64,000 nucleotides of DNA, from positions 5,552-69,551 of the forward strand of contig JBGSRU010000007.1 in assembly GCA_041737385.1 (NCBI GenBank). Direction: 5' to 3'. The position numbers were made by a program, and so were the translations under genes. Under the pieces are notes generated by a model. That model ran no database searches and was not told the origin of the DNA. It saw only the letters and a program-made list of their open reading frames with translations. This DNA is from Candidatus Saccharimonadales bacterium (GTDB lineage Bacteria; Patescibacteriota; Saccharimonadia; Saccharimonadales; SZUA-47). Below are positions 2,093-30,573 of this stretch, piece after piece. The first letter of the stretch is position 1; each line of letters begins with the position of its first letter.

Positions 2093-2278
2093 TTTCGCTT
2101 CTCTTTCGCTAACGGATACGGTAAGATAGGATAGCATAAAAGTTGTTGTCTGCAGCTTCACAAATTCGAGAGAAGAATCTCGAATTTGAAGAATTGCCGG
2201 CATGATATGGTAGTTATTTTTGCCCAACAAATTTATTTTGTGGGCGGAAAAGCTACCATATCTGTACACGGCAATTCA

Positions 2279-4180: not shown

Positions 4181-4369
4181 TGGTGGACACGGCAGGATTT
4201 GCCCACCAATGGCGACCCCGGAAAAACTTCTTAGAAAATAAATTTTCAAGAGTTTGTTCCCTTGCGGACTGCACGAATGACAGCCCTCACTTCCGACCTC
4301 ATCGGTCGTAGATTCAAATCTTCCAAGTAAAGCCAATAAAAAAGCCGGTCAGATGACCGACACTTTTAT
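4181..4369 (-). repeat. tRNA-Arg 3'-end cassette (same architecture as the tRNA-Ser cassettes)
   Basis: 4181-4201 TGGTGGACACGGCAGGATTTG matches the tRNA 3' end TGGTGAACCCGGCAGGATTTG (4370-4390) at 19/21. An opposite-strand decayed copy of the T-arm/acceptor lies at 4303-4335 (21/32). A terminator hairpin lies at about 4341-4362. Confidence 0.8.
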
Positions 4370-27675: not shown

Positions 27676-27814
27676 GGAGAAGAACGGCCAGCATAAGCTG
27701 GTCTTTTTCTTTTAAGAAACAAAGGATTCGATCCGAAAAGGTTCGCTAAATAGTCTTATCACCCTGAAAGGGCTGATAGATTATTTAGGTCTCCTCATCC
27801 TGTTCTCTCCGCCA
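27676..27814 (+). repeat. tRNA-Ser(GGA) 3'-end cassette
   Basis: ATCCTGTTCTCTCCGCCA (27658-27675) repeats perfectly at 27797-27814. Terminator GGCCAGC-ATAA-GCTGGTC plus T-run. Inverted decayed copy at 27714-27734. Direct GGTTCG at 27740-27745 followed by a hairpin insert at 27752-27783. Confidence 0.85.
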
Positions 27815-27818
27815 AGTA

Positions 27819-27856: not shown

Positions 27857-28423
27857 ATGCTCAAATACACTCTACCGGATGTGCATATAGCGCAATCTTA
27901 TGATGAAATGATAGCTTTTAATGGTATTTCAACTTTTACAAGCCCCGAAATCGCAGAAGAGTTAATCGCTCAAGGTGATGGTCGTTACGACAGAGTAAAC
28001 TACGTTCTGCAAAATAGAGGTAGGTTCTTTACTGGTTTACCGGGTAAGAACGCTCGTACATTTGGGACAAGAGATATCGGCTTAAGTGAAGCTTCTCAAC
28101 TACATATCGATCCTGAGGGTAGAGGAGTAGCTCTTTGTGCAATGGGTGAGATGGCCGCAAAGCTTACTCAGCTTGATCTATCAGATGAACCGATAGAGCA
28201 TATTCCTTTTGATATTATGAATATCAACCAAGTTAGGTACGTACAATTAAAAGCAAGAATTGTTGATAATCCACCTTCTGACAGTGATGTATTATCTTTA
28301 ACCGCTCCAGTCGGAACATATATTGCGTTCAACGGTGGTCTTAAATGTGATCCAGCAAAGTTGAACCCTCATGGATTTTCAAGTTCAATATCTCCTAGAG
28401 CTAGTGTTTCTAGCTATCTTTAA
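27857..28423 (+). CDS. Orphan hypothetical protein (188 aa)
   Basis: ORF only. Lies between two tRNA-Ser genes. Confidence 0.45.
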   Translation: MLKYTLPDVHIAQSYDEMIAFNGISTFTSPEIAEELIAQGDGRYDRVNYVLQNRGRFFTGLPGKNARTFGTRDIGLSEASQLHIDPEGRGVALCAMGEMAAKLTQLDLSDEPIEHIPFDIMNINQVRYVQLKARIVDNPPSDSDVLSLTAPVGTYIAFNGGLKCDPAKLNPHGFSSSISPRASVSSYL

Positions 28424-28854
28424 TTTGTGGAGTTTAACAACAGTTTAATTTTATGTTCTTCTTTCGGGGTTACTGATCTACGACCGTCAAAACATTTCAT
28501 AAAAAGATATTCATCACCTTTATCATTTAGCGTATATAGCCAATCATATGCATACTTTTTCGTTTTTTTAATAACATATCCTTGAGAATTAGAATGAATT
28601 CTTCTAAGTTCAACTAACTTGCCTGAAAAGAATCTCACTTGAACTTTTTTTAATTTTCCTTCGTAATCAACCACAATATCGTAGGCTGCTGATTCTGTTA
28701 TTGGTAAAGAAACATCATACCCAGCTTTAGTAAAAGTGGCTATTGCTTGTGTGACTGCATAATCACCTTTGTGCTGAGTAGTTCTCATACACTCATAGTA
28801 CGGTATAGCATACCGTTCTTGCAAATATAATCTGTTATTGTTATAATTTGGCAA
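28420..28854 (-). CDS. PD-(D/E)xK-type nuclease-like protein (start possibly at 28788)
   Basis: GDYAVTQAIATFTKAGYDVSLPITESAAYDIVVDYEGKLKKVQVR fits the E...D...(E/Q)xK pattern of small stand-alone or intron-associated PD-(D/E)xK endonucleases. Confidence 0.5.
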   Translation of the reverse strand: MPNYNNNRLYLQERYAIPYYECMRTTQHKGDYAVTQAIATFTKAGYDVSLPITESAAYDIVVDYEGKLKKVQVRFFSGKLVELRRIHSNSQGYVIKKTKKYAYDWLYTLNDKGDEYLFMKCFDGRRSVTPKEEHKIKLLLNSTN

Positions 28855-28859
28855 GTTCT

Positions 28860-28949
28860 GGAGAGGTGTCCGAGTGGTTTAAGGAAATAGTCTTGAAAAC
28901 TATCGAGCCCGCAAGGGTTCCGAGGGTTCGAATCCCTCCCTCTCCGCCA
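28860..28949 (+). tRNA. tRNA-Ser (anticodon UGA), CCA encoded
   Basis: GGAGAGG acceptor, anticodon stem ATAGT/ACTAT with loop CTTGAAA, long variable arm, T-arm GAGGG-TTCGAAT-CCCTC. Confidence 0.9.
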
Positions 28950-29240
28950 ATAAAATAACCCCCACATGCAAAACATGTGAGGGTTTATTTTTTGGGAGAG
29001 CACAGAGACAACTTCTTGTCTCTGTGGGGATTCGAACAGCTTAAGCCTTGTTCCGCCCAATGTGCGGAACGGCGCGCCGAGCTCACGAGCATATTGCAGA
29101 GCAATATGACTTGGGAGGTGGAAATCCCTCCCTCTCTGCCAGAGAGAATCGCCTGGGTCTTTTTACGCAGGCGTTTTTCTTTTGCTAAAGAAAAAGGATT
29201 CGAATCACAGGTTCATGAGGTAAAGCATCCCTCCCTCTCC
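28950..29240 (+). repeat. Two stacked tRNA-Ser(UGA) 3'-end cassettes
   Basis: AATCCCTCCCTCTCCGCCA (28931-28949) recurs at 29123-29141 (18/19), and as ATCCCTCCCTCTCC at 29227-29240. Inverted decayed copies at 28993-29036 and 29183-29206. Terminator hairpins after each CCA. Confidence 0.8.
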
Positions 29241-29274
29241 TTGAATATAAAATAACTACTGTACAATAGCGTTT

Positions 29275-29589
29275 ATGGTAATGCACAAAAAACACCATCA
29301 CATATACACGAGAGCGCTAAAATCATTTGATCAAATGACGACATTCGAGAAAATAGTAACTACAGTCGGATCTATAGAGCCAATAACTTCAATTCCTCAG
29401 GTTACTCTTGTTTATTCTTTAAAGTCCGCAGAAGAACTATCTTTATTTAGCTGGGCTTTTGGAATTTTTGGGACTGTATTATGGCTCATATATGCAATAA
29501 AGAAAAAGAGCTGGCCACTGATAGTATCTAGCTTATTATGGTTGCTCATATATATTCCTATAGTTGTAGCTATAGTCCTCTACGGCTAA
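29275..29589 (+). CDS. PQ-loop / SemiSWEET-like 3-TM membrane protein
   Basis: About 100 aa with three hydrophobic helices and a PQ motif (SIPQVTLVY) in the first. Confidence 0.5.
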   Translation: MVMHKKHHHIYTRALKSFDQMTTFEKIVTTVGSIEPITSIPQVTLVYSLKSAEELSLFSWAFGIFGTVLWLIYAIKKKSWPLIVSSLLWLLIYIPIVVAIVLYG

Positions 29590-29655: not shown

Positions 29656-30573
29656 ATGGGTTTTTTAGCTGTAGTTATAGTAGTTCTAGTTTTAGTAGCT
29701 CTCACGGGGTTATTTACAGTAACGCAGCAGACCTCTGCGATAATTGAGAGATTTGGTAAATTCAAGCGAATTGCGGGCGCAGGCTTGAACTTCAAGATTC
29801 CACTCATAGACAGAGTCGCTGGTCGGCTTTCACTCCGCGTACGACAACTCGATGTACGGGTTGAGACAAAGACGAAAGATAATGTGTTCGTGTTTGTGAT
29901 TGTTAGCGTGCAGTATTTTGTTATTCCAGAAAAAGTTATTGATGCGTTTTATAAATTGCAGAACGCAGAAGCGCAGATTACTAGTTATGTATATGATGTC
30001 GTTCGAGCGAGAGTGCCAAACGTTATATTGGATCAGGTGTTCGAGACGAAAGATGACATCGCTCAGGCGGTAAAAGTCGAGCTAGAGCAAATTATGGATG
30101 ATTTTGGGTATGGGATTCTGAAAGCATTGGTAACGGACATTGATCCAGATGCAAAAGTAAAAGAAAGTATGAATGAGATAAACGCCGCTCAAAGATTGCG
30201 TGTTGCCGCCGTTGAGCAAGCCGAAGCCGATAAAATCCGTGTTGTCAAAGCCGCAGAAGCTGAAGCAGAGAGTAAAGCACTGCAGGGTAAAGGTATCGCT
30301 GACCAGAGAACCGCTATCGTTAACGGACTAAAAGAAAGCGTCACAGAGTTCCAAAACGACGTCGACGGTACAAGTGCTCAGGATGTAATGAACCTAGTGC
30401 TCATGACACAGTATTTTGACACCCTAAAAGATGTGGGGCTCAGTTCAAACAGCAACACAATCATGATCCCGCACAGTCCATCTGGAATGAACGATATTTC
30501 TGAACAACTTCGTAACGCGATGATTACTGCCAACGAAGTCAGTAAAAAATCTGGCCACAGGCCAACGGCTTAA
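29656..30573 (+). CDS. SPFH/band-7 (stomatin/prohibitin-like) membrane protein
   Basis: N-terminal TM, SPFH core (IIERFGKF...LDVRVETKTKDNV), Ala/Glu-rich coiled coil. Confidence 0.88.
   Translation: MGFLAVVIVVLVLVALTGLFTVTQQTSAIIERFGKFKRIAGAGLNFKIPLIDRVAGRLSLRVRQLDVRVETKTKDNVFVFVIVSVQYFVIPEKVIDAFYKLQNAEAQITSYVYDVVRARVPNVILDQVFETKDDIAQAVKVELEQIMDDFGYGILKALVTDIDPDAKVKESMNEINAAQRLRVAAVEQAEADKIRVVKAAEAEAESKALQGKGIADQRTAIVNGLKESVTEFQNDVDGTSAQDVMNLVLMTQYFDTLKDVGLSSNSNTIMIPHSPSGMNDISEQLRNAMITANEVSKKSGHRPTA

Follow-up and report, generated by a model that had tools for sequence, protein, structure and literature searches.

Tandem structured cassettes behind the tRNA genes of a Saccharimonadales genome: possible protein-less miniature integrative units

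Partial duplications of tRNA genes that begin in the T-loop are a footprint of integration (PMC9897764). In the att repeats of tRNA-targeting elements (the T-loop class) and in CIMEs, the 3' portion of the tRNA is repeated directly from the T-loop onward, the tRNA itself stays intact, the ancestral flank is displaced distally, and tandem arrays occur without recombination genes of their own. Such duplications are said to have been set out as a classic integration footprint by Williams in 2002. A different principle is seen in integron attC sites and in attP(+) of the CTX phage, which exist as recombination sites only in the form of folded single strands. Fold-back MITEs, REP/BIME sequences, and Rickettsia palindromic elements are small, noncoding, structured, and repeated and have inverted terminal arms. 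Finally, tRNAs may carry introns, which include bacterial group I introns and archaeal introns at noncanonical positions such as the T-loop. The Saccharibacteria genome measures about 1 Mb, and its tRNA genes are single copy.

The stretch of DNA analyzed here, a 64,000-nucleotide piece of a Candidatus Saccharimonadales genome that we call the window, contains four tRNA genes (Ser-GCU, Arg-GCG, Ser-GGA, and Ser-UGA; ARAGORN and Rfam). All four are trailed by short cassettes, seven in total, which in the window occur solely behind tRNAs; the original prediction that the cassettes are real units recurring across loci was thereby borne out. The units are 99 to 192 bp long, and the open reading frames inside them are overlapping and spurious. 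Each consists of a terminator, an inverted tRNA 3' portion, a structured insert, and a direct tRNA 3' copy. The terminators are intrinsic, with A and T tracts that lengthen the stem. The inverted arm always includes the reverse complement of the T-loop (GATTCGAAC; ATTTGAA with tRNA-Arg and ACTTGAA with tRNA-Leu). Ahead of the structured insert, a direct copy covers the 5' strand of the T-stem and the first part of the T-loop; behind it come the rest of that loop, the 3' strands of the T-stem and of the acceptor, and in most cases CCA. Pairing between the inverted and direct arms makes each unit a fold-back, closed by a helix of the paired tRNA 3' portions that constitutes terminal inverted repeats as in a MITE.

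Integration into tRNA genes leaves a repeat beginning in the T-loop, a tRNA that is still intact, and a flank that has been displaced, and the cassettes share all of these, as well as the tandem arrangement without recombination genes, with att repeats and CIMEs. They differ in being gene-less units instead of kilobase elements with genes, in carrying a tRNA 3' copy in inverted orientation and, at the T-loop position, a conserved structured insert, and in that neither an integrase nor an autonomous partner element was found for them in the searches reported below. The likeness to attC and CTX attP(+), which is structural only, lies in a possibly strand-specific structure with conserved mismatches and bulges, in inverted and direct arms that can pair into a mimic of the duplex target, and in one-way accretion at one fixed entry site. 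Unlike integron cassettes, these units hold no credible open reading frame, have no IntI or attI among the flanking genes, and target a tRNA gene, and nothing in attC or attP(+) matches large branched inserts such as L1 (described below). Unlike MITEs and palindromic elements, which are dispersed regardless of context, the copies cluster at tRNAs: they stand only beside tRNA genes, are nearly always co-oriented with them, and have tRNA-derived arms that usually match the local tRNA. We favor, at about even confidence, the reading that the cassettes are tRNA-linked, protein-less miniature integrative units that occur across Saccharibacteria and accrete at tRNA genes. The family appears to be undescribed so far; no description of such cassettes was found in the searchable literature.

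The features of the four tRNA loci in the window are as follows.

2372-2750, + strand: tRNA-Ser(GCU) array, composed of S1 (2372-2520), S2 (2521-2700), and a degenerate fragment (2701-2750)
4181-4369, - strand: tRNA-Arg(GCG) cassette, with an L1 insert at 4188-4292 (covariance model, 82.5 bits, E 1.5e-20)
27676-27815, + strand: tRNA-Ser(GGA) cassette, full S type
28860-28949, + strand: tRNA-Ser(UGA), intact, CCA encoded, the anchor of the array (ARAGORN; Rfam tRNA, 58.7 bits)
28950-28993, + strand: terminator of cassette 1, a two-way hairpin (terminator scan matches on both strands; inverted repeats I1 and I4)
28994-29040, + strand: inverted degenerate tRNA 3' portion (inverted repeats I5 and I6)
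29041-29123, + strand: L2 insert (ortholog at L008 2108-2222)
29124-29141, + strand: first extra tRNA 3'-end copy (ATCCCTCCCTCTCTGCCA), which closes cassette 1 (repeat search)
29142-29183, + strand: start of cassette 2, with GAGAGAA, a terminator hairpin (29150-29173), and a T-run (inverted repeat I2; fold)
29174-29206, + strand: TTTTTCTTTT/AAAGAAAAA hairpin and then the inverted T-loop motif AGGATTCGAATC (29195-29206) (direct repeat D2; S-cassette alignment)
29207-29226, + strand: degenerate direct T-stem/T-loop start (ACAGGTTCA) and linker GAGGTAAAGC (alignment A5)
29227-29240, + strand: second extra tRNA 3'-end copy, short of GCCA, which closes cassette 2 (repeat search; 14-mer scan)
29247-29256, + strand: ATAAAATAAC, a second occurrence of the 10 nt just downstream of the tRNA (direct repeat D3)

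At the tRNA-Ser(UGA) locus, a repeat search found ATCCCTCCCTCTCC in three copies, at 28932, 29124, and 29227. The copy at 29124 has CTCT in place of CTCC and is followed by GCCA; that at 29227 stops ahead of GCCA. The two extra 3'-end copies that had been noticed in the sequence are thus present, and chance does not readily produce them: with up to one mismatch, the 14-mer has six matches in the window, every one at a tRNA-Ser locus, against 0.01 expected from 100 shuffles. The repeated segment extends from A58 of the T-loop through CCA, a direct repeat downstream of an intact tRNA as an integration scar would have it, and in the window it continues for 10 nt more. Since ATAAAATAAC stands both after the tRNA (28950) and after the last copy (29247), the repeat reaches beyond CCA, and its distal occurrence probably marks the ancestral downstream flank. 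An independent assembly (L225) has the identical sequence, which excludes an assembly artifact; an exact-protein look-up for strain variants of the window yielded a single contig, an identical one. Identity of the SPFH protein (29656-30570) with proteins of Saccharibacteria genomes reaches 92%. Within 29241-29270, the last tRNA copy has TTGAAT where GCCA would stand, and this, together with TGTACAAT 15 nt on, forms a promoter-like pair for a PQ-loop gene (29275-29589).

Cassette 1 (28950-29141) carries the insert of the L2 family. The terminator first described for it, ACCCCCACATG/CATGTGAGGGT plus a T-run, is there, its stem lengthened by an A tract and a T tract up to CCA/TGG, as is the inverted pseudo-3' end TGGGAGAGCAC...GTGGGGATTCGAAC with the hairpin CACAGAGACAA/TTGTCTCTGTG between its halves. 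Of the inverted repeats in this portion, I5 is a perfect 11-nt inverted match to the tRNA T-loop, and I6 is an 11-bp hairpin (29001-29026) that splits the inverted tRNA 3' portion; in the minimum-energy fold, the inverted portion pairs with the direct copy. Both of the internal hairpins originally pointed out, GTTCCGC/GCGGAAC and CATATTGC/GCAATATG, were recovered. The L2 insert has hairpins at 29050-29070 and 29090-29108 and a conserved GGCGCGCCGAGCTCA; it also supplies the 5' arm GGGAGG (29113-29118) and the loop of a T-arm-like hairpin, the 3' arm of which, CCTCCC (29127-29132), falls within the next tRNA 3' copy. The ortholog in L008 has a mean column identity of 77%, gapped columns counted, and its changes preserve the hairpins. 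Compared with shuffles, cassette 1 folds with a z of -6.9 on the + strand and slightly better, with a z of -7.6, on the complementary strand; going by the two L2 sequences, this insert is probably under a single-strand folding constraint in the tRNA sense.

Cassette 2 (29142-29240) contains every part attributed to it, namely, GAGAGAA (which complements the acceptor 3' strand), the terminator, the TTTCTTT/AAAGAAA hairpin, AGGATTCGAATC, and GGTTCA. In alignment A5, the S hairpin is absent from 29207-29226, its place in the full S type.

Family membership was assessed by removing the terminal tRNA copy and comparing local alignment scores with those of dinucleotide shuffles. Cassette 2 significantly resembled Ser-GCU cassette 1 (z 11.9) as well as the Ser-GGA cassette (z 7.7), in agreement with the short type originally proposed, and was also similar to a cassette in L005 (z 5.8). 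The long type that had been thought common to cassette 1, Ser-GCU cassette 2, and the Arg cassette broke up under the same treatment, as cassette 1 gave a z of 1.2 with the former and -0.1 with the latter, neither being significant. The sole relative of cassette 1 is cassette 2 of L008, in another Saccharibacteria genome (z 26). The Arg cassette belongs with cassettes behind the Ser-UGA and Arg tRNAs of L004, L005, L007, and L008 (the L1 family), and Ser-GCU cassette 2 (S2) has the S hairpin and has orthologs in L262 and L250/L252. By sequence comparison, what was called the long type comprises no fewer than three insert families (L2, S2, and L1), which are unrelated and have architecture alone in common. 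The idea that long forms are short forms plus an insert holds within the S family, where a multiple alignment makes cassette 2 an S type minus only the central hairpin of about 48 nt, but not for the long type, which is no single family. Likewise, two element forms or two stages of decay are too simple an account of seven cassettes that split into at least three families; successive entry of several insert families, followed by deletion and decay, fits them.

The L1 insert forms a four-way junction of about 95 nt. It is housed in the T-loop of an incomplete tRNA copy, where it follows G53/T54 and is closed by the T-stem of that copy. A metagenome scan with the L1 pattern yielded about 16 true loci behind Lys, Leu, Pro, Ala, Thr, Arg, and Ser tRNAs, and the covariance model yielded 60 matches, 39 of them distinct. 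Paired cells amount to 94.4% in L1, 75% in shuffles, and 30 to 48% when the partners are slid; 27 of 34 pairs are altered on both sides (covarying), and a G·U pair is retained in 29 of 32 sequences. In the S hairpin, a G·U pair is invariant, a bulged C is conserved, and 10 of 25 pairs covary, and in all three S-type cassettes tested the tRNA-sense strand folds better than its complement. Because G·U becomes an A·C mismatch on the other strand, the constraint on L1 and S acts on the tRNA-sense single strand. L1 has the orientation of the nearest tRNA in 32 of the 33 copies with a tRNA in the locus and lies 66 to 81 nt behind CCA or 11 to 92 nt in front of the tRNA. Most of these 33 matches are within about 100 nt of a tRNA; tandem units reach about 360 nt, and one pair of units is about 1.8 kb away. 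For the copies upstream of tRNAs, a 5' fragment of a tRNA, in some cases with a duplicated promoter, serves as host, and L1 may sit in its D-loop or D-arm or follow its first 5 nt (CGGGG). The host copies miss a 5' or 3' part, T55 is absent at the junction, and many copies are truncated or chimeric.

Several L1 loci have peculiarities of their own. The sole L1 cassette opposing its nearest tRNA (L212 915-1160) converges on a tRNA-Arg(CCU), and a two-way terminator is common to both. L1 units can be tandem or mutually nested (L206 4136-4520, L214 1134-1320, and L256 90-290), and hairpin D is sometimes enlarged by an additional hairpin, so that the motif is modular. At L220 876-1000 and L214 2780-3050 there are chimeric pseudo-tRNAs, in which L1 links the 5' part of tRNA-Glu or tRNA-Val with the 3' end of another tRNA, suggesting recombination between L1 copies of different loci. 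On the minus strand of L215 (900-1200), an intact tRNA-Thr(GGU) is nested within the D-loop of a degenerate second tRNA, and L1 occupies the T-loop of the latter; the nested gene is bordered by a 5-nt duplication (GTAGA).

L1 and the S hairpin lie within the T-loop of a tRNA-like sequence in the sense orientation, as tRNA introns may. Nevertheless, a group I or archaeal-type T-loop intron was rejected, since the tRNA copies that host the inserts are incomplete or degenerate and lack one T-loop base where the insert joins, and the group I core is absent; removal of the insert does not restore a complete host tRNA. Unlike the situation with introns, an intact intron-less tRNA always stands beside the interrupted copy, save in L220 and L014, where none was found in the locus, and at L214 2858-3030, where the nearest is about 1.8 kb away. 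The Patescibacteria tRNA introns of PMC13011429 are confined to the anticodon loop. A tRNA or tRNA-like gene on the opposite strand was also rejected, as acceptor pairing is absent there, ARAGORN and Rfam gave no match, and G·U pairs turn into A·C.

The strong sense-strand covariation of L1 and S and their conserved G·U pairs would also be seen if the cassettes were functional structured RNAs that are transcribed with the tRNA, by read-through or from duplicated promoters, and freed by tRNA-processing enzymes, their tRNA-like ends being handles for processing or recognition, or else decoys that draw off factors binding to tRNA 3' ends. Such a role would suit the nearly constant co-orientation of L1 with the tRNA and its location either within a 5' leader that is transcribed or downstream of a duplicated promoter of the tRNA in L214, L218, L008, L001, and L258, as well as the acceptor-like closing helix of folded S cassettes and the free, CCA-bearing 3' tail that the Ser-GCU and Ser-GGA cassettes keep in their folds. 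Against it, a strong intrinsic terminator stands ahead of every downstream cassette, promoter-like sites are absent inside the Ser-GGA and Ser-UGA cassettes, and the many truncated or chimeric copies, together with presence, type, and number that vary among close relatives (three genomes are empty), are unlike a conserved RNA gene. We judge an RNA function unlikely.

The reading as accreting integrative units draws on the polymorphism of the same sites in related genomes. The orthologous Ser-UGA site has no cassette in L001, L226, and L230 and is filled by differing families in L002 to L008, L229, L231, L250 to L253, L258, and L262. The terminator that stands next to the tRNA in the empty L230 lies beyond the final repeat in L004 and L231, where insertion would place it, so that in these two the ancestral flank follows the last repeat. 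L229 is an exception in that its ancestral-type terminator is tRNA proximal, contrary to this prediction. From the tRNA outward, the arrays are ordered as follows.

Ser-GCU, L262: tRNA, S2
Ser-GCU, window: tRNA, S1, S2, fragment
Ser-GCU, L250: tRNA, L1, S2
Ser-UGA, L262 and L006: tRNA, a single cassette type
Ser-UGA, L252: tRNA, L1 ahead of the L262/L006 cassette type
Ser-UGA, L008: tRNA, L1 ahead of L2

The order of entry can be read from these arrays: distal cassettes are shared and older, and proximal ones are lineage specific. Terminators that follow successive copies are unrelated to each other. Differences occur even at nearly strain level: contigs encoding an identical SPFH protein diverge after the repeat ATCCCTCCTCCTC, with a whole cassette in one case and a 147-amino-acid gene in the other. 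In L258, a cassette trailing tRNA-Ser(UGA) terminates in a Ser-GCU 3' end, and a tRNA copy in L222 has its own compensated T-stem, which indicates that cassettes travel with their own tRNA-derived arms.

Some of these observations could be accommodated by local replication errors, in which snap-back of the terminator or T-arm (tandem inversion duplication) creates immobile cassettes in place. A tRNA 3' end followed by an inverted and then a direct copy has the direct-inverted-direct arrangement expected around palindromes, the inverted T-loop motif tracks the local tRNA variant (TTCAAAT in Arg and TTCAAGT in Leu), and the repeat in the window continues 10 nt beyond CCA. Snap-back leaves unaccounted for, however, the insert families conserved between different tRNAs and genomes, and the successive terminators would not be unrelated; moreover, since the L258 and L222 copies derive from another tRNA, not all copies are of local origin. 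We consider this explanation very unlikely.

Two further observations concern exchange near these sites. There are two xenologous types of the tRNA-Ser(GGA) gene (L008 740-1109, L001 3690-3950, and L258 1830-2098). In L008, type 1 is a truncated, L1-interrupted pseudogene immediately upstream of an intact type 2; the roles are opposite in L001; and in L258 a type 2 pseudogene with L1 in the D-arm lies upstream of an intact type 2. These pseudogenes suggest that an essential tRNA gene has been replaced repeatedly. In L243 and L244 (1346-2245), a DDE transposase gene is located upstream of the SPFH gene and the arrangement differs in other strains, a further sign of a recombinationally active neighborhood.

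If the cassettes are integrative units, a unit would enter by recombination within the segment of the tRNA gene from the T-loop to CCA. The incoming DNA would bring a replacement 3' end or flank and a terminator, which would keep the tRNA intact, and the older 3' end and older cassettes would be shifted downstream. Repeated entry would make the array grow, and deletion between direct repeats and within units would erode it; the S hairpin of cassette 2 may have been lost through such a deletion. The recombination substrate would be a folded single strand whose inverted and direct arms mimic the double-stranded tRNA target. We infer this substrate by analogy with integron attC and CTX phage attP, and the recombination chemistry, the enzyme, and the intermediate implied here are likewise inferred. 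Some points sit uneasily with accretion: at 100 to 190 bp, a double-stranded circle is so small that it would not recombine readily, and simple T-loop integration does not account for the L1 placements upstream of tRNAs, in the D-loop or D-arm or after CGGGG. A bolder formulation, possible but doubtful in our view, is that these are previously undescribed protein-less elements of 100 to 200 nt in Saccharibacteria that are directed at the part of tRNA genes from the T-loop to CCA, integrate as folded single strands, and continually turn over tRNA genes and replace them xenologously. Equally tentative is its extension, in which the L1 four-way junction, the S hairpin, and L2 would be new modules and the arrays would consist of superseded tRNA fragments.

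Candidate enzymes and larger relatives were sought in several ways. Pfam searches of the genes flanking the four tRNA loci revealed heat shock, ComF-like, HTH-HAD, ValRS, PD-(D/E)XK, and PQ-loop proteins but no integrase, transposase, or reverse transcriptase beside the tRNAs, and neither an integron integrase nor an attI site with promoter was found among them. A crude motif scan of the whole window gave no recombinase. In viral contigs, the two family-specific patterns used, those of L1 and S, had zero matches or chance matches in coding sequence and thus gave no true cassette match that would represent a free or autonomous form. The 18-nt tRNA-Ser 3' end alone matched 120 viral loci, presumably because this end is widespread. 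BLAST of the 291 nt spanning both cassettes had no match in phage and plasmid collections, and an origin from phages or plasmids was set aside on the basis of these scans. Rfam 15 reported only tRNA at threshold and nothing credible over the cassettes, so that a known RNA family was rejected as well.

These results bear on whether the cassettes are ordinary attR/attL scars of prophages or other elements with tyrosine integrases, nearly all of whose DNA has since been deleted. The T-loop-start duplications are what such elements leave (PMC9897764), and genes do occur after such repeats, such as the 147-amino-acid ORF in L250 and the PD-(D/E)XK gene with ORF188 between two tRNAs of the window. 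Independent deletions, though, would give random remnants and not complete units that, with stereotyped spacing (66 to 81 nt) and covarying hairpins, are found again and again in many genomes behind Ser, Arg, Lys, Pro, Leu, and Ala tRNAs, and no integrase or phage or plasmid relative was found in flanking genes, viral scans, or BLAST searches. Scars of this kind are a quite improbable explanation; in our ranking, functional RNAs are the likeliest of the alternatives, followed by remnants of full-size elements and then by local snap-back duplication.

Genes near the arrays were considered separately. The region between the tRNA-Ser(GGA) cassette and tRNA-Ser(UGA) (27857-28854) holds an ORF of 188 amino acids and the PD-(D/E)XK gene (PF11645); in six relatives, the spacing between the two tRNAs is only 42 to 51 nt. 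The homing endonuclease I-Ssp6803I, encoded by a tRNA intron, belongs to PF11645. A gene of this kind occupies the corresponding spot in L230 (2408-2758), where cassettes are absent, and it is missing from most cassette-bearing loci; a tie between it and the cassettes was rejected for these reasons. Pfam was uninformative for possible cargo genes after the repeats, and a regular-expression search for S hairpins was too noisy for use. Directly upstream of tRNA-Ser(GCU), the gene at 1358-2089 combines a double zinc ribbon with a phosphoribosyltransferase domain, which is the architecture of a ComF-type competence protein and would be relevant if the cassettes are fed by incoming single-stranded DNA. 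Several tRNAs are immediately preceded by a conserved structured leader (window 2150-2278, L001 3560-3690, L250 1650-1817, L258 1700-1830, L262 1230-1364, and the tRNAs of L216 and L208). It comprises the hairpin AAATTCGAGAGAAGAATCTCGAATTT, a long hairpin, and ACAC...TCA abutting tRNA position 1; the apex of the long hairpin is AAACTTGTTTT in most relatives and AAATTTATTTT in the window, and Leu examples have CTGACGA.

L1 and S provide at least two well-supported structured nucleic acid motifs that are new to Rfam. Arrays are present at four of the four tRNAs of the window, gain, loss, and exchange are constant among related genomes, and the reciprocal tRNA-Ser(GGA) pseudogenes suggest that essential tRNA genes are often replaced. 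Should the cassettes prove mobile, they would rank among the smallest site-specific elements known, and tRNA loci would be the main recombination hot spots of these reduced genomes. Their mobility would also account for the misannotated tRNA fragments and the assembly breaks at tRNA genes in metagenome-assembled genomes.
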